Positions 1-25,967 of a stretch of 64,000 nt of DNA are shown here, in pieces. The notes under the pieces are model-generated. The model did not search any database. It was given only the letters and a program-made list of their open reading frames with translations, and was not told the origin of the DNA. The stretch is from positions 136,807 through 200,806 of the forward strand of contig JBGOEK010000002.1 in the NCBI GenBank assembly GCA_041537945.1, given 5' to 3'. The position numbers and the translations under genes are program-made. Each line of letters opens with the position of its first letter. Position 1 is the first letter of the stretch. This DNA is from Candidatus Thermosaccharophagus yellowstonensis (GTDB taxonomy: Bacteria > Armatimonadota > Fervidibacteria > Fervidibacterales > Thermosaccharophagaceae).

Positions 1-311
1 AGCACGATGAGGTGTGGGTGATGCTTCACGATTGCCTCAATGCTTGGGCGCATGAACGCTCCCACCTTCGGAAGACGACGAACCTGCGGTGGATAGTCCG
101 AAGATTCATCAACAGCAACAACTGCATCGCCAGCCCCTATCGCAAAGAGTATCTCGGTGGCGCTTGGCGCAAGCGAGACGATACGCGTTGGTGGCTTTTT
201 AAGGCTCACGAGCCTACCGAGGTCATCTCTAACTGCAACGGCAAAGCAATCGCAAGCATGCAGAAGCAACAGAGACAAGACAACTCCTCTGCCGATAGCA
301 CTCAAAAGCAT
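1..311 (-). CDS. btuF: BtuF-type periplasmic cobalamin/siderophore-binding protein, N-terminal part (gene runs off the left edge)
   Basis: Not in the ORF track because it is truncated by the window edge. Hand translation of the minus strand from ATG 311 (alternative ATG 332): MLLSAIGRGVVLSLLLLHACDCFAVAVRDDLGRLVSLKKPPTRIVSLAPSATEILFAIGAGDAVVAVDESSDYPPQVRRLPKVGAFMRPSIEAIVKHHPHLIV... It has a signal/lipoprotein-like N-terminus. It then shows the RIVSLxPSxTExLFAxG ... SDYPPQ ... PxxExI pattern of BtuF/FecB-type binding proteins. The SDYPPQ stretch matches E. coli BtuF from memory. Confidence 0.7.
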   Translation of the reverse strand, partial: MLLSAIGRGVVLSLLLLHACDCFAVAVRDDLGRLVSLKKPPTRIVSLAPSATEILFAIGAGDAVVAVDESSDYPPQVRRLPKVGAFMRPSIEAIVKHHPHLIV

Positions 312-340
312 CACCCACACCACCCTCAACATGGGGAGAA

Positions 341-1114
341 CTATTGCCTGTCGAACAGCGCTTCTTCAACAGTTCCAAGTGTATCGATGGTGCTGTCTCT
401 GTATGATGGCTTTATGACCTTCGCATGCCCATCAACGAAGGCTGCACACGCAAGCCCGTTGTGCCTGAAATGGATGTCATAGTAGCCCCACGCCTGTGAT
501 GGTGGCGTTATCGCTACAGACTCCTCAAGCTCTGACGGGTTTGAAAACTGTTTCCTCGCCGAGTCAGCGAGCAACAGTGTTTCAGATGGGTTTGCTATTT
601 GCGATTCGTGTGCAGCGTTCTTGCACCATCCCCAGCCACAAAGTTCGTTGCTTGAGTAAGAAGGGTCTGGAGTTCCACCAACATAATACCAGTTGTATCC
701 GTAGCCCATCCCCACTGCAACAGCCCTTATCTCTCTTGCGAACGAGGGACAGCGCTTTATTTCCTTCGTCCTCAAGTATGGGTAGAGCAACCCACGCGTG
801 AAATCGACGGTGCCACCTTGCACCCAACCATACCAGTATTGACCCCAACTCCAGTCGGAGGCTTGCGCACCAACGAACGGCATGAGCATGCCATCGTAAT
901 CCTGTGAATACATTAACACACCGAGAGCCAACTGCTTCAGGTTTGATGTGCAAGATGCAGTCCTTGCCTTCTCTCTCGCTCTGGCAAGCACGGGGAAAAG
1001 CAGAGCTGCCAGGATAGCGATAATCGCTATCACCACCAGCAGCTCAATGAGCGTGAATGCCGAAGTTGCTCTGCGTGTCATGCTGAAAGCCCATCTCTGC
1101 CCATTTCGCGTCAT
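341..1114 (-). CDS. prepilin-type N-terminal cleavage/methylation domain protein with H-X9-DG motif (DUF1559 pseudopilin family)
   Basis: 257-aa ORF. N-terminus ...[36 protein letters not shown] is a class III signal with cleavage before FTLIE and Glu at +5. C-terminal [13 protein letters not shown] is H-X9-DG. SD GGAGGTG lies upstream of ATG 1114. Confidence 0.9.
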
Positions 1115-1354
1115 CTCACATGCACCTCCATTGTGGGATTGGTTTTAGTTGCGTGCATGGGATTGTAAACGCGCAAATGCGGTGGGAAGCCCTCTCGATG
1201 TAGGAGTGGCTAAATCTGTGACGCATAGGGATAGACAAAGATATCCCCTGCCACGCCTACCTCATTTGGGGCTTCCTCAAAGGGTGCTCAGTGGGGGTCT
1301 GCTAAACCGCGTCCTTAGCATGCTCACCACCCTCCCTCGAGGCGGCACGAGCAT

Positions 1355-1550
1355 GAAAGCGCGGATGGACCGGTCTTCTGGCTCCCGGATCATCCTACTC
1401 CCCGCGCCTTCCCAATGGGGATTAGCCCCATCAGTGGCTTGACGACGCCTTAGCTTTCATTCGGCATCGCCTGCGGGTTTCGTCCCCGGTCACAGCTGCG
1501 GGGCAGCAACGGATTCTCACCGTTTTCCCGCACATCCATCCGCGTCCGCA
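1355..1550 (-). promoter_or_regulatory. cobalamin (adenosylcobalamin/B12) riboswitch
   Basis: Minus-strand reading: GCGGATGGATGTGCGGGAAAACGGTGAGAATCCGTTGCTGCCCCGCAGCTGTGACCGGGGACGAAACCCGC ... AAGCCACTGATGGGGCTAATCCCCATTGGGAAGGCGCGGGG ... GATCCGGGAGCCAGAAGACCGGTCCATCCGC. Three conserved elements are present: the GGGAA-GGTG-GAA-CC / CCCGC-CTGT core, the GCCACTG...GGGAAGGC element, and a B12 box (AGCCAGAAGACCGG). A P1 helix closes the aptamer (GCGGATGG at 1543-1536 pairs with CCATCCGC at 1368-1361). A TATAAT box lies upstream on the same strand at 1612-1607. Confidence 0.85.
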
Positions 1551-1741
1551 CCGCTTCGTTTCAAAGTGCGTTATGCCTCACATGCAACGCCACATAGTCA
1601 CCACACATTATAACGCACACCGCATGCGATACTCATACTGCTCATACGATAGCGTTTCAGGAGTGCCACTCAAGTCCTATCAATGGCTTGAAGCCAAGAG
1701 CATGCAGATCTGAAAGAAGCGCTCTCAGGTGCTTGAGGGAT

Positions 1742-1770
1742 TTGACTATGTTGACCATCCTTGCTATCTT
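1742..1770 (+). promoter_or_regulatory. candidate sigma70-type promoter upstream of parB
   Basis: TTGACT (1742-1747), 17-nt spacer, TATCTT (1765-1770), about 65 nt upstream of the parB ATG. Pattern match only. Confidence 0.3.
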
Positions 1771-1833
1771 TCTCAATCGGGGTCTCTTCGGAAAGGCTCA
1801 TACCGCTACCTCAACTCAGGTGGTGCTATAGCT

Positions 1834-2712
1834 ATGCGCAAGCGCGGTTTGGGTAGAGGTTTAGATGCGCTCATACCACCAGCAGGTGGGGAGGCTTGGG
1901 AAGCCGGTGCGGGTGTAGGCGGTAACATCGTCGAGATTGAAGTTGACCGAATAAAGCCAAACCCATTTCAGCCACGCCACAAGATGGATCAAAAGGCATT
2001 GCAGGAGCTCGCCGATTCAATACGGGTGCATGGCATCCTTCAGCCAGTTGTCGTAAGGCAAGTTGAAGATGGTTATCAGCTCGTGACAGGTGAGAGGCGT
2101 TGGAGAGCAGCGATGCTCGCTGGGCTGAAGAAGCTACCGGCAGTCATAAGGCAATGTGATGACCAAGAGATGATTGAGTTCGCTCTCATTGAGAATCTAC
2201 AGCGCGAGGACATAAACCCAATTGAGGAGGCTGAGGCATACTTCCAGCTCGCGAGGCGCTTCGGTATGACTCAAGAAGAGATCGCAGCTCGCGTCGGCAA
2301 GAGCAGGGCTGCAGTCGCAAACACCATGCGCCTGCTACAACTCCCAGAGCCAATTAAGGAAGCGATAAGGAACGGTGAGTTGAGTGAAGGTCATGGGAGG
2401 GCTCTCCTTGCGCTCGATGACGAACAGAAAATGCTACATGCGTTTTCGCTCGTCCAACGCCATAACCTCTCCGTGAGACAAACAGAGGAACTGGTGCAAA
2501 GGTTGAAGGCGAGGGAACAAAGAGCGCAAAAGAAAAAGCGTGAGTTGGATCCGAACCTGCTATCGCTTCAAGAAGAGATGCAAAGGCAACTGCAAATGCG
2601 CGTCCGCATAAAGCCGGGAAGGAAAGGGGGCACAATTGAAATACGCTACCTAACTGATGAAGACTTGCAACGCTTCGTTGATCTCATACTCGGGGAAGGT
2701 TTCTCACGCTAA
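1834..2712 (+). CDS. parB: chromosome partitioning protein ParB (Spo0J family)
   Basis: MRKRGLGRGLDALIP N-terminus, ParB box GERRWRAA, HTH region and C-terminal dimerisation segment. The track ORF starts at 1729, but ATG 1834 gives the canonical N-terminus. Confidence 0.9.
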   Translation: MRKRGLGRGLDALIPPAGGEAWEAGAGVGGNIVEIEVDRIKPNPFQPRHKMDQKALQELADSIRVHGILQPVVVRQVEDGYQLVTGERRWRAAMLAGLKKLPAVIRQCDDQEMIEFALIENLQREDINPIEEAEAYFQLARRFGMTQEEIAARVGKSRAAVANTMRLLQLPEPIKEAIRNGELSEGHGRALLALDDEQKMLHAFSLVQRHNLSVRQTEELVQRLKAREQRAQKKKRELDPNLLSLQEEMQRQLQMRVRIKPGRKGGTIEIRYLTDEDLQRFVDLILGEGFSR

Positions 2713-2749
2713 GTTAGCAGAAGCATCGTGGCACAGTTGGTGGTGAATT

Positions 2750-3475
2750 GTGAGCGGTGGAACATTCCTCGCTCTTGTTCTGATCACGCAAGCGATAGCA
2801 CACCTGTTTGAGCCATTGCACCAATGGACGGCTTCTCAAAACAAGTATAGGGTGCTCATCTCGGTGTTGCGCGTCCCGATGCTCCAAAAACGCACATCCA
2901 TAACCGATGCCATGAGGAACCACATGCTCAAACACGCCAGCAGTGAAGTAGTAATGACAGCGATCGCCAAATACATAAGAAAGCTCAACAACAAAATCGA
3001 TGATGCGAAAGCCAACAAGATAGCCAAATCACTGGTTGATTCGGCAAGCCGCAACAACATAGATGCATGTTTGCTCACAGCCCTTGTTGCGAGGGAATCA
3101 TCATTCTGCCACGAGACGCGCTCACCAAGTGGCGCTATCGGGCTTGCACAGCTGATGCCAGAGACTGCAACTGCGCTCGGGATAACCGACCCCACTGACA
3201 TAGCACAGAACTTGGAAGGGGCTGCGCGCTACCTTAAAATGCTCATAGAGCTTTGGCATGCTCGTGAGGATGCTTTTGAGATGGCTCTGGCAAGCTATAG
3301 GTTAGGTCCAACATTGATTAAGGCATGTGACGGCATACCTAACATCTCCAACATCGCTGTATACTTGGATGATGTGTTAGCTCACTTCATTAAGCTTCAA
3401 GGGCTGATCTCGGAAATCGACAACGATGCCAAAACAGCGACTGCAAAGAACGGAAAGGGAGTTGCCTCCAAGTGA
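2750..3475 (+). CDS. lytic transglycosylase (SLT domain) protein
   Basis: SLT motifs ARESSF (catalytic Glu-Ser), GAIGLAQLMPETA, AARYL and ALASYRLGP. Hydrophobic N-terminal segment. GTG start is uncertain. Confidence 0.8.
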   Translation: MSGGTFLALVLITQAIAHLFEPLHQWTASQNKYRVLISVLRVPMLQKRTSITDAMRNHMLKHASSEVVMTAIAKYIRKLNNKIDDAKANKIAKSLVDSASRNNIDACLLTALVARESSFCHETRSPSGAIGLAQLMPETATALGITDPTDIAQNLEGAARYLKMLIELWHAREDAFEMALASYRLGPTLIKACDGIPNISNIAVYLDDVLAHFIKLQGLISEIDNDAKTATAKNGKGVASK

Positions 3476-3528
3476 CGGCAGATGTTCCCGCTTCTCAAAC
3501 AGAGGCTGATGGAGGAAGGTGAGGGCAA

Positions 3529-4146
3529 GTGGAGATACTCAAACAATGGGCACTACATCTCCTTGAGCAATATGGTTTGATCGGGTTGTTCACGGTTGCA
3601 TTCATTGAATCTTCATTCTTCCCTGTTCCGCCTGATGTCTTGCTGATCGCCATAGTGGGGACCTCTCCGGGTTTAGCGCTAAAGAGCAGTTTCATATGCA
3701 CTATTGGGAGCGTTCTTGGCGCGCTGTTAGGTTATGCTGTTGGCTTAATTGGCGGACGCCCGATACTGCTCAAGCTGTTTAGGCGAGAAAAGGTCGAAGC
3801 GGTTGAGGCGCTATACAGCGAGTATGGCGGTTATGCGGTTCTCATCGCTGCATTCACACCGATACCGTATAAGATTTTCACGATTGCGAGCGGTGTCTTC
3901 AAGCTCAACATCGGCACTATGTTGCTCATGTCCATCATAGGGCGTGGGGCAAGGTTTTTCCTTGTCGCATATGCTGTGCGATTCGCCGGCTTGGCACTCA
4001 TAAAAAGGGTCGATGTATTTAGCCTTGCTGTCGTTGCCGTTTTATCTGTTGCGTTGCTTTGCGCATGGCTTTATCATCGTAAGAAGCTCCAAAGCGTGTT
4101 CAAGGAAGCCTCAGCCGAAGCGCAAAAGGAAGGCGCAGAAACATGA
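3529..4146 (+). CDS. DedA/VTT-family (YqaA-like) membrane protein
   Basis: 205 aa with multiple TM segments. FIESSFFPVPPDVLL motif is typical of the DedA/SNARE-associated family. Confidence 0.75.
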   Translation: MEILKQWALHLLEQYGLIGLFTVAFIESSFFPVPPDVLLIAIVGTSPGLALKSSFICTIGSVLGALLGYAVGLIGGRPILLKLFRREKVEAVEALYSEYGGYAVLIAAFTPIPYKIFTIASGVFKLNIGTMLLMSIIGRGARFFLVAYAVRFAGLALIKRVDVFSLAVVAVLSVALLCAWLYHRKKLQSVFKEASAEAQKEGAET

Positions 4147-4283
4147 AAACGGCTTTCCGTGGCTAACAAGCGGTAGTGCTCCTGCCCCCTCAAGCATAGG
4201 ATAGCTCATCCTGCCACCGCACTGCGCTAAAATGAGTATAGCCTTCGTCTAAGCCAAGCTCGCAACTATTGAGGTGAAAGAGT

Positions 4284-5030
4284 ATGACCGAAGGGGAGCG
4301 CCATGGAAACCCTTTCTTAGGTTTCTGGCAACGCATTAAGCATGCGCTGAGGGCGAGGAAGAGAAGAAGAGCAAAAGATAAGTCTTCAAAGCACTCGCTG
4401 GAGGTGGACAGGATGAGAATGCGTTATACGAGCAACGGTAACGAAGGTTTCGCTGAGCAGGGCGATCTATTTTCAGAGCAGAAGCAAGAGCATGCATGGA
4501 ACTTAACCGATAAGGAGTTTGTGCCTCATCCACATGGGCAACCTTGGAGGGTCGGCGTATTCATTGATGTCCAAAACCTTTACTTGTGCGTTAGGAGCGT
4601 TTTCGGCAATCAGGCGAAGATAAATTACAGAGCCCTAAAGGAGTTCCTCTCACAAAACGGCGCGGTTGTGAGGATGACCGCCTTCACATGCTATGACCCT
4701 GAAAACCATTCCCAGCTTGAGTTCATACACGCCCTTTCGCTGATGGGCTATAGAGTTGTCGCAAAGCCTGTGAAGCGTCTCCCTGACGGAAGCATCAAAG
4801 CGAACATGGACATGGAGATGGCGATCGAAATAATGTCGCAAGCTCCCTTCCTTGATGAAGTGATCCTTGTAACGGGCGACGGTGATTTCACGCCCCTCGT
4901 TGATCAACTTGCGAGGATGGGGAAGCTCACAAAGGTTATCGGTCCAGATAAACTGACATCGCCAGAGTTGATAAGAGCTTGTGATGCGTTCATCAACCTG
5001 ACACAGATCGCTGGGATACTGGACTACTAA
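4284..5030 (+). CDS. NYN-domain (LabA/DUF88-like) protein, putative RNase
   Basis: VGVFIDVQNLY ... EVILVTGDGDFTPLV, the pattern of NYN/LabA domains. The N-terminus is basic and low-complexity, so the true start may be further downstream. Confidence 0.75.
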   Translation: MTEGERHGNPFLGFWQRIKHALRARKRRRAKDKSSKHSLEVDRMRMRYTSNGNEGFAEQGDLFSEQKQEHAWNLTDKEFVPHPHGQPWRVGVFIDVQNLYLCVRSVFGNQAKINYRALKEFLSQNGAVVRMTAFTCYDPENHSQLEFIHALSLMGYRVVAKPVKRLPDGSIKANMDMEMAIEIMSQAPFLDEVILVTGDGDFTPLVDQLARMGKLTKVIGPDKLTSPELIRACDAFINLTQIAGILDY

Positions 5031-5047
5031 AAAGATGCGCAAACAGC

Positions 5048-6883
5048 GTGGTGATACTTCAAATGGAGCGAGAGAGGTGGGCAACGAGGATAGGATTGAT
5101 ACTTGCAATGGCTGGCAACGCTATCGGGCTGGGCAACTTCCTCCGCTTCCCCGGGCAAGCTGCAAGGAATGGCGGAGGGGCTTTCATGATCCCCTATTTC
5201 ATCTCCCTTATCCTCATGGGGATACCTCTCATGTGGATGGAATGGGCACAAGGGCGCTTCGGTGGAGCAAGGGGATACGGAACAACACCAGGGATGTTCC
5301 ACGAGATGTGGAGGGCACGAATCAGCAAATACCTCGGCGTGCTTGGCATATTCATACCGACCATCATCATGCTTTACTACACCTACATCGAGAGTTGGAC
5401 ACTTGGTTATAGTGTGCTTGCGCTGTTGGGCAAGCTCCCAAGAGTTGAAGCAGGCATGTCACCATCTGAAGTGCTCGCAAGATTTGAGGGCTACTTCTAC
5501 TCATACATCGGTAGGAGTGGCGATTGGTTCGTTTCGGTAAGCCCAACCGCTTATGCCTTTTTCGTCATAACGCTGGCACTCAACATCTGGATACTCGCAA
5601 GGGGTGTCGCAAAAGGTATCGAGGTGCTCGCGAAGGTGGCAATGCCGTTGCTCTTCATCTTCGCAATAGTTTTGGTCATAAGAGTTTTCACGCTTGGTGC
5701 AAAGGTTCATCCAGAGTGGACTCCTTTGAAAGGTTTGGCGTTCCTTTGGGAGCCAAGGTGGTTTACGGAGTATCATGGGCATCATGTGTTTACACTTTTC
5801 AACCCAACGATATGGCTCGCTGCAGCTGGGCAAGTGTTCTTCACGCTCAGTTTGGGTATGGGCGCTATACAAACCTATGCCAGCTACTTAGACGAGAACG
5901 ACGATGTGATGCTGAGTGGCTTAACAACAACATCAGCTAACGAGTTTGCGGAAGTAGTGCTTGGTGGCTCAATAGCGATACCAGCTGCTGTGACATTCCT
6001 TGGTCTCACTGGAGCCCTTGAGGTCGCTGCGAAGGGCGTCTTTTACCTTGCGTTTGTTTCAATGCCAACCATATTCAGTTACCTGCCTGCAGGCAACCTC
6101 TTTGGCGCAATTTGGTTCCTTCTCCTTTTCTTCGCTGGCTACACATCCTCAGTTGCCATGTCACAGCCGATGATGGCATTCCTACAAGAGCACTTTGGCA
6201 TAAGCCGTGTGCGTGCAGCTTTGTCCCTCGGCGTCTTTTACTTCCTCGCAACTCACATATGCATCTTCCTCAGGGGTGGCGTTGATGTAATGGACTTCTG
6301 GGTCGGAACATTCGGACCACCACTGCTTGCACTCATTGAGGTCATCATCATGATGTGGATATTTGGTGCCGATAGGATGTGGGAAGAGATGCATCGTGGG
6401 GCTGAATTGCGCGCACCTCGCTTCTTCTACTACACCAGCAAGTATGTGACACCGTTGTTCCTCATTCTCATATTCGCAGGTTGGATCTATCAGAACCTCA
6501 TCTCGAAGAAGGTCTTCAACGGAATCATTGAGCAAATTGAGTATGTGGGTGAAACGGCGCATGTGAAGGTAACAGTTGGCGATAAGCAACTCATCTGCAA
6601 AGCGAGCCAGAAGGATGGAACGAGCTTCTTGCGCCACGGGGAAAAGGCTGACTTGAGCGACTTCAAGGTCGGCGACGAAATCTTTTTCGGTTTGAGGAAA
6701 GGAAACATACTGACCTTCGTCGCCGATGAGTTCTCATACCGCAATGTGATTGCAAAGACGGTTGAAGGGCAACAGCCCGGGATAACAATTTGGATAACGA
6801 GGATCTTCCTTCTATCAGTTCTTGTTGCCATGTGCATAGCAGTCGGCATAGCATGGCGCATAAAGGAGAGCGTTAGAAGATGA
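5048..6883 (+). CDS. sodium-dependent transporter, neurotransmitter:sodium symporter (NSS/SNF) family
   Basis: RERWATRIGLILAMAGNAIGLGNFLRFP ... GGGAFMIPY signature with a polytopic core. An unusual C-terminal soluble segment of about 110 aa is followed by one extra TM helix. Confidence 0.9.
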   Translation: MVILQMERERWATRIGLILAMAGNAIGLGNFLRFPGQAARNGGGAFMIPYFISLILMGIPLMWMEWAQGRFGGARGYGTTPGMFHEMWRARISKYLGVLGIFIPTIIMLYYTYIESWTLGYSVLALLGKLPRVEAGMSPSEVLARFEGYFYSYIGRSGDWFVSVSPTAYAFFVITLALNIWILARGVAKGIEVLAKVAMPLLFIFAIVLVIRVFTLGAKVHPEWTPLKGLAFLWEPRWFTEYHGHHVFTLFNPTIWLAAAGQVFFTLSLGMGAIQTYASYLDENDDVMLSGLTTTSANEFAEVVLGGSIAIPAAVTFLGLTGALEVAAKGVFYLAFVSMPTIFSYLPAGNLFGAIWFLLLFFAGYTSSVAMSQPMMAFLQEHFGISRVRAALSLGVFYFLATHICIFLRGGVDVMDFWVGTFGPPLLALIEVIIMMWIFGADRMWEEMHRGAELRAPRFFYYTSKYVTPLFLILIFAGWIYQNLISKKVFNGIIEQIEYVGETAHVKVTVGDKQLICKASQKDGTSFLRHGEKADLSDFKVGDEIFFGLRKGNILTFVADEFSYRNVIAKTVEGQQPGITIWITRIFLLSVLVAMCIAVGIAWRIKESVRR

Positions 6884-6975
6884 GCTGGCAAGGTTGGCTT
6901 TTCCTCATCTTCGGGTGGGGCTTCGTCATCGGGTTGTTCATCTACTGCTTTTCAAGAGTTATCACTCGCCCATGA
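6880..6975 (+). CDS. 31-aa single-TM micro-protein, candidate NSS transporter small subunit (MetS-like)
   Basis: Below the ORF-track cutoff. ATG 6880 overlaps the transporter stop (ATGA), which implies translational coupling. Product: MSWQGWLFLIFGWGFVIGLFIYCFSRVITRP, one hydrophobic helix plus a basic tail. Confidence 0.45.
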   Translation: MSWQGWLFLIFGWGFVIGLFIYCFSRVITRP

Positions 6976-6994
6976 AGGCAAGAATGATAATCCC

Positions 6995-7711
6995 TCATGT
7001 TACTCGTATGCGGAAGCGCTCCTCAGCTTGCGATGGCAGGACATACAACGGCTTAAGCTGAAAGATGTCGTCACCTCTTCCTGACCTTTCCCAACGCCGA
7101 TAGGCAAGTTGAGCTACACCGCACGCCGTTGGAATGACATGCACGATGTTGAGTAAGCCCCTTTTAGACGAGCTGAGTTGTGAGATGACTTCATGCCACG
7201 CCTCACTAAACGCACCACATAAAACAGCTGGCGAATCATCGTTAAGGATCTCCTTTGCGAGCTCGCCAACATCAACGACGCACTCCGAACGGAGTGTGGT
7301 CAACTCACCACCGTGCATAGCAAACATGGCAAAGTATGCTTCCATCAGCCTTGTTGGGCGTGATGGATAAAGAACGAAAACCCTCTGCCCCTCCGAGACC
7401 GTCGCCATATGAGCCATGCATTCGAGCGTCCGTATGCCGATTATCGGTTTCCTGAGCGAGTATGCGAGCGCCTTGGCATAGGCAATGCCTATGCGTGTGC
7501 CCGTGAACGAACCGGGTCCGATGGAGACGGCGATAAGCGAGATGTCGCTGAAACTACAATGGGCAAAATCAAGCACTGAGCGCGTAAGCTCTGGTAGCCT
7601 CCTGAGCAAGTCACGGTAAGTCCGCACTAAAAACATGCACTTGAGCGACAAACCATCGCTTACAGCTATGCTACAAAGCTCCCCTGTTGTTTCGAGCGCA
7701 AGAACAAGCAT
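6995..7711 (-). CDS. tsaB: tRNA threonylcarbamoyladenosine (t6A) biosynthesis protein TsaB
   Basis: LALETTGELCSIAV N-terminus and GPGSFTGTRIG motif of the TsaB/YeaZ family. Adjacent to tsaE. Confidence 0.85.
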   Translation of the reverse strand: MLVLALETTGELCSIAVSDGLSLKCMFLVRTYRDLLRRLPELTRSVLDFAHCSFSDISLIAVSIGPGSFTGTRIGIAYAKALAYSLRKPIIGIRTLECMAHMATVSEGQRVFVLYPSRPTRLMEAYFAMFAMHGGELTTLRSECVVDVGELAKEILNDDSPAVLCGAFSEAWHEVISQLSSSKRGLLNIVHVIPTACGVAQLAYRRWERSGRGDDIFQLKPLYVLPSQAEERFRIRVT

Positions 7712-7717
7712 AGGCGC

Positions 7718-8203
7718 TCACTTCCCCCTTGACTGTTCCCATTCAACTCTTATCGCCGAGATGAGTTCCACATACCTTTTGCCGAGTGGCACTAAGCGAA
7801 CCCTCCTGCCAACGCTCTCATGCGAGATGAATATGTCCAAGCGTTCACTTGGCAGGAGCTGACTTATATGTTCAGCCCACTCGATAACGATGACGCCACC
7901 AAGCGTTAGGTATTCGCTGAAGGCTAATTGCTGTTCAACATCATCTGGCTCAATGCCCTCAAGCCTGTATGCGTCCACATGGAAAAGCGGTAGCCTGCCA
8001 ACATACTCCCGCACGAGTATGAATGTCGGGCTGACAGCACGCTTGCCTACACCGAGCCCCTCAGCTATGCCCTGAATGAGTGTTGTCTTGCCAGCACCAA
8101 GCGGTCCGTAAAGCGCTATGATGTCGCCACAGCGAAGATGAACTGCTATGCATTTTCCAAACTCAATCATCTCGCTTGCGCTCTCCACTTGTATCTCCCA
8201 CAT
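7718..8203 (-). CDS. tsaE: tRNA t6A biosynthesis ATPase TsaE
   Basis: GPLGAGKTTL P-loop, SPTF and HVDAYRL motifs of the YjeE/TsaE family. Confidence 0.9.
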   Translation of the reverse strand: MWEIQVESASEMIEFGKCIAVHLRCGDIIALYGPLGAGKTTLIQGIAEGLGVGKRAVSPTFILVREYVGRLPLFHVDAYRLEGIEPDDVEQQLAFSEYLTLGGVIVIEWAEHISQLLPSERLDIFISHESVGRRVRLVPLGKRYVELISAIRVEWEQSRGK

Positions 8204-8242
8204 GCCTCATCAACCCTTGATGCCTCTTGAGAGTTATCGCAG

Positions 8243-9916
8243 ATGCACAGTGCTATGATGATTTTGGCATCCCGATCCTTTGACTGCTCATCAGCAAAAG
8301 CTATACACAGACGAACAGACGAGGTGTGCAAAGGACAGATGTGCGAACTGCCGAGCAACTCAAATCGTCCTATGCTTGTGATTTTAGCAGTGCTTTTGCT
8401 CAGCGTGCTCTTCATCACCCTCGTCCTATGCCCCACGATACCACTTGGTGTTGTTGGTGAATGGGTGCTTGAGCGAAAGCATGTCCCAATCAAGAGGTGC
8501 ATACCAGCGATCGTCGGCATCGTTTTGTTCATCATCGTCACATGGAGGTGCGCCATAAAGGCGCCGACCACAAGATGCGAACTCATGAGCGCTGTTACGG
8601 CGCTCTTCATCACATCCATATTTGTGCGCTTCTTCGTGCAGTTCATCGAGCCGTTGGGAAGGCACCCGATGGCGCATTCAGCATACACCGCTGTGAGTCC
8701 TATAGCCACATCGTTTTTCATCTCCGCTCGCAATGCGGAGGATGAAGGGTGGCTCAATGTCATACGCAACTACGATGACTTTATGCGCCGCCAACCAGTT
8801 CATTCAGCAACGCATCCGCCGGGCATCCTGTTGCTTTACAGCGTGATCAGAGTGGCAACGAAAAACTCTCACCTGCTTCAAAACATCGCATACGCTGCCA
8901 TCGGCGGGAGGGAGTCGCTCGCCTTCCATGTCACAGCCGTGCGCAAACTCCTCGGCATACAAGTTGAGCCATGGGAGGTCGCTGCCGGCTTCATCAGCTC
9001 ACAGCTCATGCTCCTGCTCGGTGCGCTTACATTGCCATTCATCATCCTCGCTCTAATAGCCCTCAGCTATCCTCGTCCCGATGACCACGACGAGAGCACC
9101 GACAGAAGCGAATTGTGGTGGGTTGTCCCAACGATCTCACTCATCTACTCAACATCCCCTGGGCAGTTTGCGTATGTGGCATCGCCAGACCAGCTGCTCA
9201 CATTCATCTCGGCAGTTGGCTCGGCATGCATCTGCATTTGGGCATGTGTTAAGCGAGCCAAGTCAACGCTCCTTCTCATCGGCGTGCTCGGCTTCGTTGG
9301 GTTGTTCTGTAGCTTCAAATTCGCACCCATCCTTCTGATGTGGGTGCTCCTGATCATCGTTGAAACGATGAGGCAAGCTAACCGACATGGCAACTTGAAG
9401 GTCACATGCGACATCGCCACAGCGCTCGGCTGGTTTGCCATGCCGATGTTTTTGCTTGGATTGCTCCTGCTCATCGCCTTCGGCTTTGATTGGCTCAGCA
9501 CATTCAGCGTGGCAATGCATGCCCACAGTGCTCAAGCTGTTTCATCCGTGCGAACATATTGGAAGTGGGCGATAGTTAACTTGTTTGAGTTCAGCTTCTC
9601 GATCGGTCCTGTGTTGACGGCATCTTTGAAAGCCTGCCTCTGGCACGCAATCTCTTCGAGGGCGAAATCAACTGGCGAAAGGATGCTCATCATGTGCGTC
9701 GCTATCATAATGTTGATGGACATACTTGGCATAGTGCGTGGTGAGGTCTCACGCATCTGGCTTCCGTTCACGCCACCGTTGGCGATCGGGATAGCGGCGA
9801 ACAAATGCTTCCGAAGCTTAAAGCGCTTGCGCGCATCGTTCACATTGCTCTCGCTTTCTCAAGCAGTCACAGCCATTTTTGTGAGGGCGTTCGTTGATGC
9901 CGTTAGAGCATGGTGA
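8243..9916 (+). CDS. polytopic integral membrane protein, function unknown
   Basis: Long ORF with many hydrophobic helices along its whole length and no motif I can name. The start is ambiguous (ATG 8243 or ATG 8339). Confidence 0.6.
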   Translation: MHSAMMILASRSFDCSSAKAIHRRTDEVCKGQMCELPSNSNRPMLVILAVLLLSVLFITLVLCPTIPLGVVGEWVLERKHVPIKRCIPAIVGIVLFIIVTWRCAIKAPTTRCELMSAVTALFITSIFVRFFVQFIEPLGRHPMAHSAYTAVSPIATSFFISARNAEDEGWLNVIRNYDDFMRRQPVHSATHPPGILLLYSVIRVATKNSHLLQNIAYAAIGGRESLAFHVTAVRKLLGIQVEPWEVAAGFISSQLMLLLGALTLPFIILALIALSYPRPDDHDESTDRSELWWVVPTISLIYSTSPGQFAYVASPDQLLTFISAVGSACICIWACVKRAKSTLLLIGVLGFVGLFCSFKFAPILLMWVLLIIVETMRQANRHGNLKVTCDIATALGWFAMPMFLLGLLLLIAFGFDWLSTFSVAMHAHSAQAVSSVRTYWKWAIVNLFEFSFSIGPVLTASLKACLWHAISSRAKSTGERMLIMCVAIIMLMDILGIVRGEVSRIWLPFTPPLAIGIAANKCFRSLKRLRASFTLLSLSQAVTAIFVRAFVDAVRAW

Positions 9917-9949
9917 GCTAACTTTGCTTGGTGGGGGTGTATCAACGCT

Positions 9950-12847
9950 GTGGGAACTCGTTACATAACGATAAAGGGAGCAAGACAGCACAACTTAAAG
10001 AACATCTCGCTGAAGCTACCGAAGGAGAAGCTGATTTGCATAACTGGGATAAGCGGTTCGGGAAAATCATCGCTCGCCTTCGATACCATCTACGCCGAGG
10101 GTGAGAGAAGATATGTTGAGTCGTTATCTGCATACGCACGCCAGTTCCTTGAGCGCATGGATAAGCCAGATGTTGATTTCATTGATGGCTTATCGCCAGC
10201 AATATCGATTGACCAAAGGGCAGCATCTCACAACCCGCGCTCAACAGTGGCTACGGTGACGGAGATTTACGACTACCTTCGTTTACTCTACGCGAGGATT
10301 GGAGTGCCACACTGCCCAAGGTGTGGTCAGCAGATCTCGCGCCAGTCGGTTGACCAAATAGTTGATCATGCTATGTCACTGCCAAAGGGAACAAGGATTT
10401 ATGTGCTCGCACCACTCGTGCGTGGTAGGAAGGGTGAATACAGGCACTTGTTTGAAGAGATAAGGAGGCAGGGCTTCTTGAGGGTCAGGGTGGACGGCGT
10501 CGTGAGAGATGTGAACGAGGAGATCGAGCTTGATAGATACAAGATGCACTGGATTGAAGTTGTGGTTGATAGGCTCGTCATAGACGAGGGTGTTAGAGGC
10601 AGGCTCGCTGACTCAATTGAGACAGCACTAAAGGCTGGTCAGGGCTATGTCATCATCCATCGATTGAGCGACGACGGGAAAGGGACTGACATGATGTTCA
10701 CGGAGCATTTCGCGTGCCCAGATTGCGGGATAAGCATCGGTGAACTTCAGCCACGCAATTTCTCGTTCAACAGCCCATACGGTGCATGCCCACACTGTGG
10801 TGGCTTGGGCTCAATAGCTGAATTTGACCCAGAGCTCGTCATACCAGACCCGAGGCTGTCGATAGCGGAAGGCGCAATCGTGCCATGGAGGAGCTACACA
10901 AGCAATTACAAGCGCGAGATACTCAAAGCAGTCGCCAAAGCATATGGCTTTTCAATCCACACGCCGATAAAGGATTTGACGAAAGAGCAACTTGAGGCAA
11001 TCCTCTACGGGACTGACAGACCAGTCCAAGTCACTTATGTCAACCGATATGGGAGGGTGCGCACAATAACCACATACTTTGAGGGCGTCATAAACAGCCT
11101 CCAACGCGACTACGATGAAGGTGATGACGAACTAAGGGAGCACCTGCGCAGGTTCATGAGCACACATCCATGCCCTAAGTGTAACGGCGCAAGGCTAAAG
11201 CCAGAAAGCCTCGCAGTGAAAATAGACGGATGGAACATAGCTGAGGTTTGCAAACTCACCGTGAGGCAAGCCCTTGACTTCTTTGAAAGGCTGAGGGAGA
11301 AGCTACCAGAGCGACAAAGGGTGATCGCTAACGAGATACTCAAGGAGATATGCAACAGGCTTCGCTTCCTCGTTGATGTCGGCTTGGATTACTTAACGCT
11401 TGATAGGGAAGCATCAACGCTCGCTGGTGGTGAAGCACAAAGGATAAGGTTGGCAACACAAATAGGCTCTGGGCTAACTGGCGTTCTATATGTGCTTGAT
11501 GAGCCAACAATAGGCTTACACCCGAGGGACAACAAAAGGCTTATAAACACCCTCAAGAAATTGAGGGACATGGGAAACACGATAATCGTAGTTGAGCATG
11601 ATGAGGAGGTGATCAGGAGCGCTGACTTCATCGTTGACCTCGGACCAGGAGCAGGTGAACATGGCGGATATGTTGTGGCGACTGGCAAGGTTGAGGACAT
11701 CATAAATTGCAAGGGGTCGCTGACTGGTAAATACTTGAGCGGTGAGCTTAAGATACCGATACCGAAGGAGCGCCGAAAGCCTTCGGATAAGTGGTTGATT
11801 GTCAAAGGCGCAAGGGAGCATAACCTCAAAAACATTGATGTGAGGATACCACTTGGCTTGTTTGTGTGCGTGACTGGGGTTTCAGGCTCTGGAAAGAGCA
11901 CACTCATGATTGATATCGTCTACAACAGGCTCGCATACATCCTACATCGTGCAATAACACGCTGGGGTGACCATGACGAGATAATCGGCGTTGAACATAT
12001 CGACAAGGTGATCAACATTGACCAATCTCCGATAGGTAGGACACCTCGCTCAAACCCTGCAACATACACAGGCGTCTTCACCTACATAAGAGAGCTGTTT
12101 GCGCAGACGAGGGAAGCGAGGGCAAGGGGGTATAAGGCGGGCAGGTTCAGCTTCAATGTCAAAGGCGGTAGGTGCGAAGCATGTCAAGGTAGCGGTGTCA
12201 TAAAGATTGAGATGCACTTCCTGCCAGATGTTTACATCACATGCGATGTGTGCAAAGGCAAAAGATACAACCGAGAGACACTTGAGGTGACATACAAGGG
12301 CAAAAGCATCGCTGATGTGCTTGACATGACGGTTGAAGAGGCGCTCTCTTTCTTTGAGAACATACCGCCAATCAGACAAATATTGCAAACGCTCAATGAT
12401 GTTGGGCTTGGCTACATAAAGCTCGGGCAACCTGCAACGACGCTCTCTGGCGGTGAAGCGCAAAGGGTGAAGCTCGCTGAGGAGCTATCGAGGAAAAGCA
12501 CTGGGAGAACGCTTTACATACTTGATGAGCCAACAGTAGGACTGCACTTCGCTGATGTCCACAAGCTACTTGATGTGCTACATCGCTTGGTTGACGCTGG
12601 AAATACAGTCGTAGTGATTGAGCACAACCTTGAAGTCATAAAGACGGCTGACTGGATAATAGACCTCGGACCTGAAGGTGGCGACAACGGTGGCTACATC
12701 GTAGCTGAAGGACCACCAGAAGCCGTTGCAATGGTTGAGAAATCATATACGGGTCAATTCCTTAGGCGAATACTTGAGAGGGAGGGCAGATTGCAACAAA
12801 GCGACAAGAGAACGAAAAAGGAAATGCATGTTCACGCAGTCGCCTGA
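9950..12847 (+). CDS. uvrA: excinuclease ABC subunit UvrA
   Basis: 965 aa with two ABC modules (GISGSGKSS and GVSGSGKST Walker A, two LSGGE signatures) and CxxC zinc modules. The N-terminus [12 protein letters not shown] is canonical. Confidence 0.97.
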
Positions 12848-16936: not shown

Positions 16937-17698
16937 TTAGTATCCGAGAAGACCCGAAGTGTAAACGCCCCTCCAGAGTATCCAAAGCCTTGTTATCTCT
17001 GGGTCATTTGGCTTTTCCGATGGCGCTGGCAACCTCCTATTACGATCTGCAGTCCAAGGTGGTGGCAGTAGATGCTCAAGCCTATGTGCCTTCACATGCC
17101 CATCTTGATAGAGCACATTTAGCATCTCATTGTGCCTTGGCACTAAGTTACCATTTCCCTGGCAGTAATTGCAGAATGGGTCGTTAAGGAAAGTTTGCCC
17201 ATCGGAGTCAGCAAACGCCATCGTTTGAGCGGGGGCAATTAGCTCTGATTCGCTACGCCCACTTCTCATATTGCTTGGTCCCATACAAAAGCCATAGCTT
17301 GCGCCACCACCACAAGGGACGCCACTTCGTGTGATATTGCATCTCCCGTATGTAAGGTTTGGGGCGCTTGGGCAAACATAAACTTGAACATTTTTGACAT
17401 ACGGGTAAAGCCTGCTCAAGGGTCCTTCATCGGCACGGAAGGGCACACCCTCGTATGCAGGCAAACCACTGTATAGCCCACAACCCCACGGGACAAGCAT
17501 GCTATCGTAGTCAAGCGTATACGCTCTCATCGCTATACCGAGTTGCTTCAAGTTACTTTGACAACTCGCCATCCTCGCCTTCTCCCTTGCCTTTGCAAAC
17601 ACCGGGAACAGGATAGCTGCCAGGATGGCGATTATAGCAATCACCACCAGCAGCTCTATAAGAGTGAAGCCTATCCCTTTTTGCACCTTCTCTTTCAT
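16937..17698 (-). CDS. prepilin-type N-terminal cleavage/methylation domain protein, H-X9-DG (DUF1559) family
   Basis: [37 protein letters not shown]-terminus. [13 protein letters not shown] is the H-X9-DG motif. Confidence 0.9.
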
Positions 17699-17789: not shown

Positions 17790-18479
17790 CTAAGGAGTCA
17801 AGTAGGTGCTCCTATCTGCCCAGAATGTTTTATCCCTGAGCCATTTGACATGTCCGTCAACGAAAGCGTAGTTGCTACCGCCCATATGCGGTGTGAATGC
17901 CTCTCTCTGCTCTGTCACTGCAACATTGCATTTAGTAGGATAGCCACCGGGCGCGAGTGGCCATGCGAAGCGCCAATCAGCGCCCATCGCATGGCATGAG
18001 TCTGCCAACATCACACACATTGAAGGTTGGCGAACTCCTGCTAAATGGACGCCACCTGTCCCACCTAATGGCACTCCAACATGCAAGTTCGGATTCATGC
18101 CATAATAGACAAAGCAAGGGAATGTGCGCCCCCAGTATGTCCACGGTCCTGTAACCCTGTATCTTGGGCAAACATAGAGTTGCTCATTTTTGACATATGG
18201 GAAAATGCCCTGCCACCAAGATACGCCACTCCCTGGCGGGTCTGGGTTCTGACCCCACTGCGGACCGAAGATAGGGAACATCTCGTCGTAATCCTGAATA
18301 TACATGATCACACCTGAAGCCAGCTGTTTGAGGTTAGATTGACAGCTTGAGCTTCTCGCCTTCTCCCTTGCCCTCGCAAACACCGGGAACAGGATAGCTG
18401 CCAGGATGGCGATTATAGCAATCACCACCAGCAGCTCAATGAGCGTAAAACCAAATTTGACTTGCTTCCTCATCTTCAT
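17790..18479 (-). CDS. prepilin-type N-terminal cleavage/methylation domain protein, H-X9-DG (DUF1559) family
   Basis: [43 protein letters not shown]-terminus. [13 protein letters not shown] is the H-X9-DG motif. Confidence 0.9.
18379..18479 (-). repeat. 101-nt block identical to 25215..25315 (5' coding end of pseudopilin paralogs)
   Basis: Hand alignment: the reverse complement of 18379..18479 equals 25215..25315 base for base (atgaagatgaggaagcaagtcaaatttgg...ctgttcccggtgtt). An inner 59-nt core (gagctgctggtggtgattgctataatcgccatcctggcagctatcctgttcccggtgtt) is also identical in the 16937..17698 gene. Confidence 0.8.
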
Positions 18480-25214: not shown

Positions 25215-25315
25215 ATGAAGATGAGGAAGCAAGTCAAATTTGGTTTTACGCTCATTGAGCTGCTGGTGGTGATTGCTATAATCGCCATCCTGGCAGCTAT
25301 CCTGTTCCCGGTGTT
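25215..25315 (+). repeat. 101-nt block identical to the reverse complement of 18379..18479
   Basis: See the partner repeat feature. Base-for-base identity was checked by hand. Confidence 0.8.
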
Positions 25316-25967
25316 CGCAAAGGCAAGGGAGAAGGCAAGGATGGCGAGCTGTCAAAGTAACCTGAAGCAGATTGGGATAGGGTTTGCGATGTATACTCAG
25401 GACTACGACGGCTTCTGGCCCGCTGGTAACAACCCAGACAACAACACTTGTGCTGGCATAGTGTATCGCAACGGTTGGCGTGGTTGGATTGGAAATGGAA
25501 TCTACCCATACATCAAAAACCCACAGGTATTTCTCTGTCCAAGCAGACCTGCAGGTGGCTGGGGGGTTAACCGCGATGCTAATGGTGCAGTTTGCACAAA
25601 TGCTTATTTCACTGCAGCTTCATACACTTTCAACTATCGTGGGCTTTTTGGGGTGCATGATACGGCTATCCCACAACCTGCTCAGTTTGTAGCAATGTGG
25701 TGCACTGTAAACTGTTGGAACGACTGCTATCCAAACAGCAGTTGCGGGATTGAGACGAGAGACATACGATGGATCAGAGACAACAAGGACTATTCCAACT
25801 CACATTGGCACAATGAAATGGCGAACTACCTGTTCGCAGACGGACATGTCAAGGCATATCGTCTTAACCAAATCACATGGGATCAGCTTGAGAGGATGGC
25901 AACAACTTGTGTTAACTATGGTAAGTCCGTGTTCACGCCTTGGCAGACTGGTCCTGGATGCCCATAA
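25215..25967 (+). CDS. prepilin-type N-terminal cleavage/methylation domain protein, H-X9-DG (DUF1559) family
   Basis: [43 protein letters not shown]-terminus. [13 protein letters not shown] is the H-X9-DG motif. Confidence 0.9.

Follow-up and report, generated by a model that had tools for sequence, protein, structure and literature searches.

We describe a cobalamin (vitamin B12) riboswitch that stands directly before a gene for a type IV pilin-like protein in Candidatus Thermosaccharophagus yellowstonensis (Armatimonadota). The pair lies on the minus strand, near the start of a 64,000-nucleotide stretch of contig JBGOEK010000002.1 that is referred to here, at its full length, as the window, and the protein belongs to the DUF1559 family, also known as H-X9-DG proteins. 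The riboswitch-pilin pair is conserved in three phyla, with a recurrent and exclusive linkage to btuF-like genes, i.e. genes for binding proteins of the Peripla_BP_2 family. Given this pattern, we consider it rather probable that the protein assists in the acquisition of corrinoids, as a pilin-type accessory that is repressed by B12 and acts before the BtuF-type protein.

Conservation and specificity of the riboswitch-pilin pair

Analysis of the window with cmscan places an RF00174 cobalamin riboswitch at 1351-1554 on the minus strand (90.6 bits, E = 4.2e-21), and RF00174 is the sole Rfam family matched in the 64 kb. The match spans model positions 1-189 without truncation, so the aptamer is complete. 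An earlier reading, made from the sequence alone, had reported a minus-strand B12 riboswitch with all conserved blocks and a closing P1 helix at this place. The score lies above the Rfam gathering score of 31.5, and all of the quoted blocks are present in the cmscan alignment, i.e. GGGAAAACGGTGAGAAUCCG..., GCCACUG...GGGAAGGC, the B12 box GAGCCAGAAGACCGG, and P1 CGCGGAUGG/CCAUCCGCG, in which 1544-1536 pairs with 1368-1360. By its score, its conserved B12 box, and its closing P1 helix, the element is a member of RF00174. The same reading had named a 257-amino acid prepilin-type H-X9-DG protein as the product of the first gene after the riboswitch (341-1114, minus strand), and this was borne out by the open reading frame (ORF), by Pfam and NCBIfam, and by an AlphaFold2 model.

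A cobalamin-class riboswitch is found directly 5' of a DUF1559 pilin gene, on the same strand, at 27 distinct loci, which span Armatimonadota, Lentisphaerota, and Candidatus Ratteibacteria. Nineteen of these aptamers reach or exceed the Rfam gathering score; the remaining 8 score lower, are truncated where a contig ends, or were detected only with R1, a covariance model described below. Every closest homolog that we looked up is preceded, on its own strand, by a cobalamin riboswitch, regardless of which genes follow. For example, the homolog with 79% identity (P0002, at locus L005) shows the 3' third of an aptamer at the contig edge, and its pilin gene is followed by an asparagine-synthase-like gene. 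The homolog with 57% identity (P0003, L002/L003) has an RF00174 match of 99.4 bits located 122 nucleotides (nt) 5' of the start, and represents a single-gene unit that faces a convergent DUF3006/ComEC pair, while the RF00174 match of P0004 (58%, L004) scores 62.4 bits. Other pilin genes lead into uptake genes, including those of a 4.9-Mb Armatimonadota genome (L167, 96.7 bits; pilin, Peripla_BP_2), of L168 (111.8 bits; pilin, a 118-amino acid ORF, CobQ, Peripla_BP_2, FecCD, ABC_tran), and of L169 (49.0 bits; pilin, then two Peripla_BP_2 genes). In Candidatus Thermosaccharophagus tengchongensis (L066, 87.8 bits), the synteny is that of the window, i.e. ParB, then riboswitch-pilin-btuF-cobU-cobT, and the ParB-riboswitch junction is also kept. 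For the sequence-only reading, the key test was whether relatives keep the arrangement; the riboswitch-pilin pair is seen in these 27 loci from three phyla, 13 of which continue into a Peripla_BP_2 gene.

The GTDB scan covered one genome per species and used the head domain alone as the query to avoid the universal pilin helix; it returned 80 loci, nearly all from Armatimonadota. A riboswitch lies directly 5' of the gene, on the same strand, in 13 of the 80, and all 13 fall within the 21 loci most similar to the query. The riboswitch-positive loci include L066 and Chthonomonas calidirosea (L006), and two Armatimonas species (L020 and L022) carry an RF01689-type aptamer before the pilin. The remaining 67 loci were negative by Rfam and/or R1, with one of them (L023) lacking upstream DNA; among these 67 are the next 20 loci, negative at the Rfam gathering score. 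Among the matches listed in a separate metagenome scan, most are distant paralogs with at most 38% identity, and these served mainly as negative controls.

R1 was built from seven long-type aptamers. It scores the window aptamer, which belonged to its training set, at 140.9 bits, and it recovered all 16 of the 16 known positives outside that set with E values of 6e-4 or better. Negatives that relied on nhmmer only were discarded and redone with this model, which found a riboswitch before the pilin at L170, L172, L173, and L174 and no further match in other GTDB or metagenome loci, save a weak match (E = 0.23) that lies well away from the gene. The first of these loci belongs to Victivallis sp., a cultured isolate of Lentisphaerota, and has the riboswitch-pilin pair without btuF. 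L173, from Candidatus Ratteibacteria, has an AT-rich cobalamin riboswitch (50.5 bits by covariance model) that the nhmmer profile had missed. In L174 (Armatimonadota), the pilin gene is followed by Peripla_BP_2, ABC_tran, and FecCD, with cobQ, cobS, and cobT convergent. L172 encodes a Lentisphaerota-type pilin, a fused Peripla_BP_2-FecCD protein, and ABC_tran; this fusion of 539 amino acids (L172, 6898-8517) comes directly after the riboswitch-linked pilin and is unusual for a BtuFCD-type system.

The aptamers that precede this one pilin group take 3 forms: long RF00174 aptamers that carry the GCCACUG...GGGAAGGC extension, short RF00174 aptamers that resemble class II, and aptamers like RF01689 (AdoCbl-II) or the AdoCbl variant. 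The short leaders of Lentisphaerota align with the RF01689 aptamers of Armatimonas, with compensatory changes in 8 of 19 consensus pairs. The presence of three aptamer types on one pilin group argues for selection on B12 control, rather than simply for shared ancestry of one leader.

Linkage to btuF-like genes separates the riboswitch-linked pilins from their paralogs. A Peripla_BP_2 gene is located downstream in 13 of 27 riboswitch-pilin loci vs 0 of 86 riboswitch-free paralog loci (Fisher P = 5e-10), the latter being the loci with at least 1 kb of downstream sequence. The absence of a riboswitch is meaningful in 105 riboswitch-free loci, because at least 400 nt of upstream sequence is present in each. 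In total, about 130 other DUF1559 paralog loci, including three in the window, have no riboswitch. A tblastn search of the loci with the BtuF of the contig reveals BtuF-like genes only downstream of riboswitch-linked pilins and at L023, a locus that is truncated on its upstream side and also has the full Peripla_BP_2-FecCD-ABC_tran set. In 5 riboswitch-linked loci (L106, L131, L168, L172, and L174), the pilin gene is followed by a complete btuF-FecCD-ABC_tran set, and the sets of L023, L106, and L131 were confirmed by Pfam. Members of two phyla keep the order of pilin then btuF, with 3-70 nt between the two genes. The genes cobQ or cobUTS come after the pilin in the window, L066, L019, and L168.

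The riboswitch also stays with the pilin where btuF is absent (L002, L005, L008, L010, L014, L015, L017, L022, and L170). Because several of the riboswitch-plus-pilin units have unrelated neighbours, the pilin itself appears to be the regulated gene, and not a passenger of a btuF operon. In a neighbour-joining tree of head domains, a clade of 16 holds 15 riboswitch-linked pilins, and about 55 other paralogs hold none. The sole member of this main clade without a detectable riboswitch (Rfam E up to 1; R1) is from Candidatus Brocadiia in Planctomycetota (L009, 2851-3624). It shares a C-terminal ...LxxPCxDDxLYDRE tail with the pilin of the window and is followed by membrane proteins, not by btuF. 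A Lentisphaerota-type locus (L106, 2-853 and 1104-1925) encodes two similar paralogs in the order pilin 1, riboswitch, pilin 2, btuF, FecCD, and ABC; the contig end hides any riboswitch of pilin 1.

The window contains four DUF1559 genes, and three of them form a negative control within the same genome. These paralogs are located at 16937-17698 and 17790-18479 on the minus strand, in tandem, and at 25215-25967 on the plus strand. None has a riboswitch, and their neighbours are unrelated (glycosyltransferase, Yip1, and methyltransferase genes).

Leader, operon, and flanking genes

The leader of the window, all on the minus strand, contains a predicted expression-platform hairpin (1307-1364) directly 3' of the aptamer, with a core of CAUGCUC-GUG-CCGCCUC/GAGGGAGG-GAGCAUG at 1355-1319. 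The hairpin is present in both the minimum free energy and the centroid fold of 1095-1375 (z = -2.88). The leader has two copies of GGACGCGG: the first (1547-1540) forms the 5' strand of P1, and the second (1314-1307) pairs in the predicted fold, at the base of the hairpin, with the 3' strand of P1 (CCGCG, 1364-1360). Because CCGCG can pair with either copy, formation of P1 would preclude the extended hairpin and vice versa, which is the architecture one would expect for a switching sequence. L066 and L005, the two closest relatives, share with the window a nearly invariant hairpin core, and most other riboswitch-pilin loci have a conserved hairpin with a Shine-Dalgarno-like G-run directly 3' of the aptamer.

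An alignment of the leaders of the window, L066, and L005 also reveals a conserved block, CGGUUUAGCAGACCCCC, at 1293-1309. A short ORF after the aptamer (MLRTRFSRPP... in the window and MLKERFGRPP... in L066) was considered as a leader peptide and rejected: L005, which is 79% identical, reads the same nucleotides in another frame. Since the ORF that covers it changes frame, the block is conserved as RNA and not as peptide.

The spacer between the aptamer and the pilin start (1115-1350, 236-237 nt) has no detected intrinsic terminator or promoter. The sequence-only reading would have been undermined by an independent promoter or terminator between the aptamer and ATG 1114, and two scans found neither: a tool scan of the minus strand flagged no sigma-70-like promoter or terminator in the spacer, and an RNAfold-based scan found no hairpin-plus-T-run terminator in the spacers of the window and L066, nor in the leader of L005. 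The RNAfold-based scan, which includes a background estimate, replaced a simple terminator scan that had missed clear hairpin-plus-T-run terminators in L002, L015, and L019. With it, strong intrinsic terminators (-9.7 to -30 kcal/mol) were found in the spacers of 7 other distinct riboswitch-pilin loci, compared with about 0.39 expected from a background of 0.115 per kb over 3.3 kb of spacer. Judged by these 7 terminators and by the predicted exclusion of P1 and hairpin in the window, the related leaders behave like expression platforms. As for how the switch might reach the start codon, 190 nt further on in the window, Rho-dependent termination is one possibility and long-range occlusion of the ribosome-binding site another. 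The Shine-Dalgarno sequence GGAGG (1125-1129) lies 10 nt 5' of ATG 1114, and GGAGGUG is kept in L066 and L005.

Upstream of the aptamer, a perfect -10-like hexamer, TATAAT, can be read at 1607-1612 of the minus strand and represents a candidate promoter. The hexamer had been reported before at about 60 nt from the aptamer and is indeed present, at 53 nt; its standing as a promoter is less certain, as no acceptable -35 hexamer accompanies it (1612-1607) and the promoter scan called no site on the minus strand. The window thus has a -10 box alone, unlike L002 (5643-5670) and L015 (2534-2562), in which near-consensus TTGACA/TATAAT promoters of the sigma-70 type are located just 5' of the aptamers (12 of 12 and 11 of 12 matches, respectively).

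Downstream of the pilin, the 5' part of a Peripla_BP_2 (BtuF-like, PF01497) gene occupies 1-332 of the minus strand and runs off the window. It starts at ATG 332, 8 nt after the pilin stop, or at ATG 311, 29 nt after it, as called on the public contig. On that contig (L001, 154 kb) the full-length protein has 302 amino acids and a signal peptide with a lipobox-like LLHAC, and it matches PF01497 Peripla_BP_2 with 99.5 bits. The claim that a BtuF-type protein begins 8-30 nt after the pilin stop therefore stands as regards the family and the gap; as regards the BtuF assignment itself, the protein scores 87.4 bits against the NCBIfam BtuF equivalog NF002894, below the cut-off of 234, and its B12 specificity is consequently inferred from the context, i.e. 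the riboswitch and cobUTS.

The order of genes on L001 is riboswitch, DUF1559 pilin, Peripla_BP_2, CobU, CobT, CobS, a 72-amino acid ORF, and a cluster for carbon monoxide dehydrogenase/acetyl-CoA synthase (CODH/ACS). CobU, CobT, and CobS are all above their NCBIfam cut-offs (189.7 vs 161, 470 vs 306, and 132.8 vs 110). The sequence-only reading had suggested a look leftward, beyond the window, for btuC and btuD: neither follows the btuF-like gene on this contig, and cobU, cobT, and cobS are found instead. The CODH/ACS cluster (L001, 14537-20774), which comes after cobU-cobT-cobS, encodes CdhD, a Prismane-type CODH, CdhC/ACS, and an FeS+CdhD corrinoid iron-sulfur protein. From its gene content, the organism seems to run a corrinoid-dependent Wood-Ljungdahl module beside a B12 salvage operon, and as a cluster with a corrinoid protein adjoins the locus, B12 supply likely matters to this hot-spring organism.

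Just after the pilin stop, the btuF-like gene overlaps at its start with a weak terminator-like hairpin (314-335, minus strand; 9 pairs, of which 3 are G-C, and a T-rich tail). This hairpin is probably a chance occurrence, with shuffle controls expecting about 1.4 such sites in the region, and could also attenuate read-through into btuF. On the other side of the operon, ParB (1729-2712) is divergent and located 5' of the riboswitch. It opens a run of housekeeping genes on both strands (1729-12847) that encode ParB, an SLT lytic transglycosylase, DedA/VTT, an NYN domain protein, an SNF-family transporter, TsaD, TsaE, and UvrA.

The pilin-like protein and its possible roles

The pilin-like protein matches PF07963 N_methyl (29.9 against a cut-off of 21.2), TIGR02532 (25.9 against 16.3), and PF07596 DUF1559 (45.2 against 23.3), the last aligned to profile positions 2-53 of 268 only. 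The motif H218-X9-D228-G229 is invariant across 120 homologs, and F20 (+1) and E24 (Glu5) are invariant as well. The leader peptide is residues 1-19, with predicted cleavage at A19|F20 followed by F20-T-L-I-E24 (..ATSA|FTLIE), and translation from a second in-frame ATG (M12, nt 1081) would shorten it to 8 residues, a more typical length. The pilin of the window has Ala at position -1, and its orthologs have either Gly or Ala there. The AlphaFold2 model has a predicted local distance difference test (pLDDT) score of 88 and a predicted template modelling (pTM) score of 0.82, and consists of a 51-residue alpha-1 helix (22-72) followed by a beta-rich head of 11 strands; as modelled, this is the canonical layout of a type IV pilin, with its long alpha-1 helix and beta head.

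Among NCBIfam models, those for pseudopilins of the GspG/PulG and ComGC types are nearest to the N-terminus, and the head domain has no NCBIfam match at E values up to 10. A comparison of 21 riboswitch-linked pilins with 193 others reveals residues that are conserved in the riboswitch-linked group and rare elsewhere (G108, L109, Y140, Y144, A168, A183, and F216). The exact protein is present on public hot-spring metagenome contigs. No gene for a prepilin peptidase, assembly ATPase, platform protein, or secretin is located in the operon. Two database names for these proteins are of uncertain origin: NCBI calls the riboswitch-linked protein P0112 of L174 a "DUF1559 family PulG-like putative transporter", on a basis that we could not trace, and the Pfam short name of PF07596 is SBP_bac_10, the source of which was not found. 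Both names point to an undocumented notion of transport by this family, and a curator at NCBI may have suspected something similar.

We propose that the riboswitch senses corrinoid and shuts off a leader-controlled operon headed by the type IV pilin-like DUF1559 protein. With plentiful B12, the aptamer would close P1, the alternative leader structure would be lost, and expression would fall. The N-terminal helix of the pilin would anchor the protein in the inner membrane or assemble it into a short pseudopilus, and as a membrane-anchored pre-binder or a pseudopilus subunit, the protein would capture or concentrate corrinoids in the outer envelope or periplasm. These may then be passed to the neighbouring BtuF-type binding protein, which would supply a FecCD/ABC importer; the salvage enzymes CobU, CobT, and CobS would come next in this organism. 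The direction of regulation (OFF), corrinoid binding, the hand-off to BtuF, and the cellular location of the pilin are the parts of this scheme that we infer. The sequence-only reading had likewise suggested a pilin-like protein, repressed by B12, that assists in the capture or passage of corrinoids, and the conservation across 27 loci, the btuF linkage, and the lack of riboswitches among the paralogs support such a role at the level of genome comparison.

Several observations weigh against an accessory role in corrinoid acquisition. About half of the riboswitch-pilin loci have no nearby transporter gene, so a role outside transport is possible. In the window, no terminator was detected in the 237-nt spacer, and all 22 sequencing runs found to contain the locus are DNA metagenomes, from hot springs and sediments, with none from RNA. 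As regards the protein, the leader has Ala at position -1, where Gly is canonical; Ala is the one substitution at this site that is reported to allow some prepilin cleavage. Foldseek searches of the model against the PDB give only weak pilin matches (FimA with E = 0.25, or worse), and the head resembles no known corrinoid-binding protein in them. Similarly, a sequence profile search of the PDB and NCBIfam match the N-terminal helix only, and the residues specific to the riboswitch-linked group yield no recognisable ligand signature in the comparison of 21 with 193 pilins.

Some of these points would fit another explanation, which we regard as unlikely: that the protein is a pseudopilin like those of type II secretion systems (T2SS), induced by B12 starvation, that exports or displays another corrinoid-scavenging factor or remodels the surface, and does not bind corrinoid itself. 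In favour of this are the N-terminus, which as noted is nearest to pseudopilins of the GspG/PulG and ComGC types, the many riboswitch-pilin loci in which the pilin gene stands alone with no transporter nearby, and a head without similarity to known B12 binders. However, the pilin is not accompanied by any gene for a secretion machine or for a candidate secreted binder. Its recurrent partners are only btuF, FecCD, ABC, and cob genes, and the close spacing of pilin and btuF (3-70 nt) in two phyla is also not what export of another factor would suggest.

Type IV pilins commonly mediate adhesion and motility, and the pilin might thus serve a behaviour under B12 limitation other than transport, e.g. 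adhesion to or contact with corrinoid producers, biofilm formation, or motility, and be merely co-regulated with uptake genes. The carriers inhabit dense hot-spring mats, sediments, and guts, where such behaviour would be plausible, and monocistronic riboswitch-pilin units exist. We nevertheless find this quite improbable, given that tight operon linkage to btuF or btuFCD is seen in 13 of 27 loci and in none of the 86 paralog loci, and that an adhesin needs no place as the first cistron of a transporter operon, which is where the pilin is found in two phyla. Finally, the high number and scatter of DUF1559 genes (four in the window and 68 in Planctopirus limnophila; PMC10632474) could suggest a passenger inserted by chance under a riboswitch that controls btuF and cob genes, but this is very improbable, as the riboswitch remains with the pilin in the nine named loci without btuF, single-gene units contradict it, the riboswitch-linked pilins cluster in the tree, and the pairing is repeated across three aptamer types and three phyla.

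Relation to known systems and significance

An accessory role in corrinoid acquisition can be compared with several known systems. One is B12 uptake by BtuB/BtuFCD, both of the E. coli/Salmonella type and in the btuFCD operons of other bacteria, which likewise has an RF00174-class aptamer before uptake genes. The Peripla_BP_2 protein, FecCD permease, and ABC ATPase of riboswitch-controlled BtuFCD systems recur in 5 related loci, and the operon of the window contains cob salvage genes. Unlike in these systems, the first cistron in the window encodes a type IV pilin-like DUF1559 protein, and btuCD are not adjacent. To our knowledge, a pilin-like first cistron is part of no described B12 uptake system. 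Within the neighbourhoods of the loci examined, no gene for a TonB-dependent receptor was found. The riboswitch, BtuF/FecCD/ABC, and CobUTS are ordinary parts, and the pilin-like first cistron is the new element.

BtuG and BtuH are surface-exposed, B12-binding accessory lipoproteins of Bacteroides uptake loci that work with BtuB. Like them, the pilin is an extra, lineage-specific protein of riboswitch-controlled B12 loci that presumably acts before the inner-membrane transporter; unlike them, it has a class III (prepilin) signal and a predicted pilin fold, and the resemblance is one of function only, by analogy. Of the known systems, these two lipoproteins are what the pilin would resemble most in its way of working, with the bindosome described next as a parallel in logic. 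Homology to BtuG or BtuH is not indicated by any match in Pfam, NCBIfam, or PDB sequences, nor by any Foldseek match with E below 0.25.

The archaeal bindosome, in which sugar-binding proteins of Sulfolobus with type IV prepilin-like signal peptides serve ABC transporters, offers a parallel for a pilin-type N-terminus on a protein that may be tied to an ABC importer, and for paralogs that may differ in specificity. In the bindosome, however, it is the substrate-binding protein that bears the pilin signal, whereas the window encodes a separate, ordinary BtuF-type protein, and no substrate-binding-protein fold was found in the pilin head by Pfam, NCBIfam, or Foldseek. The bindosome is also archaeal, and the carriers of the riboswitch-pilin pair are bacterial lineages with an outer membrane.

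With the ComGC/PilA competence pili and the GspG/PulG pseudopilins of T2SS, the protein shares the N-terminal methylation motif, Glu5, and the long alpha-1 helix; DNA uptake by ComGC/PilA sets a precedent for pili that bring a large ligand through the envelope. By contrast, its head has no homology to these proteins, with matches that stop at about residue 72, and the cargo would be another one. In its own family, i.e. the DUF1559/H-X9-DG paralogs of Planctomycetota, Verrucomicrobiota, Lentisphaerota, and Armatimonadota, the protein is a regular member by PF07596, PF07963, and the H-X9-DG motif, and its subgroup alone carries cobalamin riboswitches and btuF neighbours.

The function of the DUF1559 family has been called unknown, and two of the copies in P. 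limnophila are essential (PMC10632474); another paper merely notes a DUF1559 gene on plasmids. A search of the full-text literature, with subscription-only papers outside its scope, found no report that links a cobalamin riboswitch or corrinoids to prepilin-type or DUF1559 proteins, in agreement with the earlier statement that the family had no known link to corrinoids.

A bolder proposal, which we hold to be doubtful, is that DUF1559/H-X9-DG pseudopilins are interchangeable capture subunits, each specific for its substrate, in a pilus-like import device that needs no TonB-dependent receptor. These subunits would bind a nutrient at the outer membrane or beyond it, and retraction or a periplasm-spanning relay would deliver it to a binding protein and an ABC importer. 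If this were true, the subgroup linked to B12 riboswitches would be the first DUF1559 paralog with an identified cargo, and the device would explain why tens to hundreds of DUF1559 genes are present in Planctomycetota, Lentisphaerota, Verrucomicrobiota, and Armatimonadota. Should pilus-mediated capture of a vitamin be demonstrated, there is a real chance that this would be a categorically new system. Cultured carriers of the riboswitch-pilin pair exist in Chthonomonas calidirosea and Victivallis sp.

DUF1559/H-X9-DG proteins are among the largest paralog families without an assigned function in several poorly studied phyla. As a riboswitch reveals which ligand is sensed, the conservation of one for cobalamin, with btuFCD and cob genes as neighbours, ties the subgroup described here to corrinoid supply, and this link is the first ligand-linked functional lead for the DUF1559 family. 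If the pilin captures or relays B12, it would be a new kind of component beside BtuB, BtuG/H, BtuM, and the energy-coupling factor (ECF)-type CbrT, and would suggest a general, pilin-based mode of nutrient capture for bacteria in which TonB-dependent receptors may matter little.

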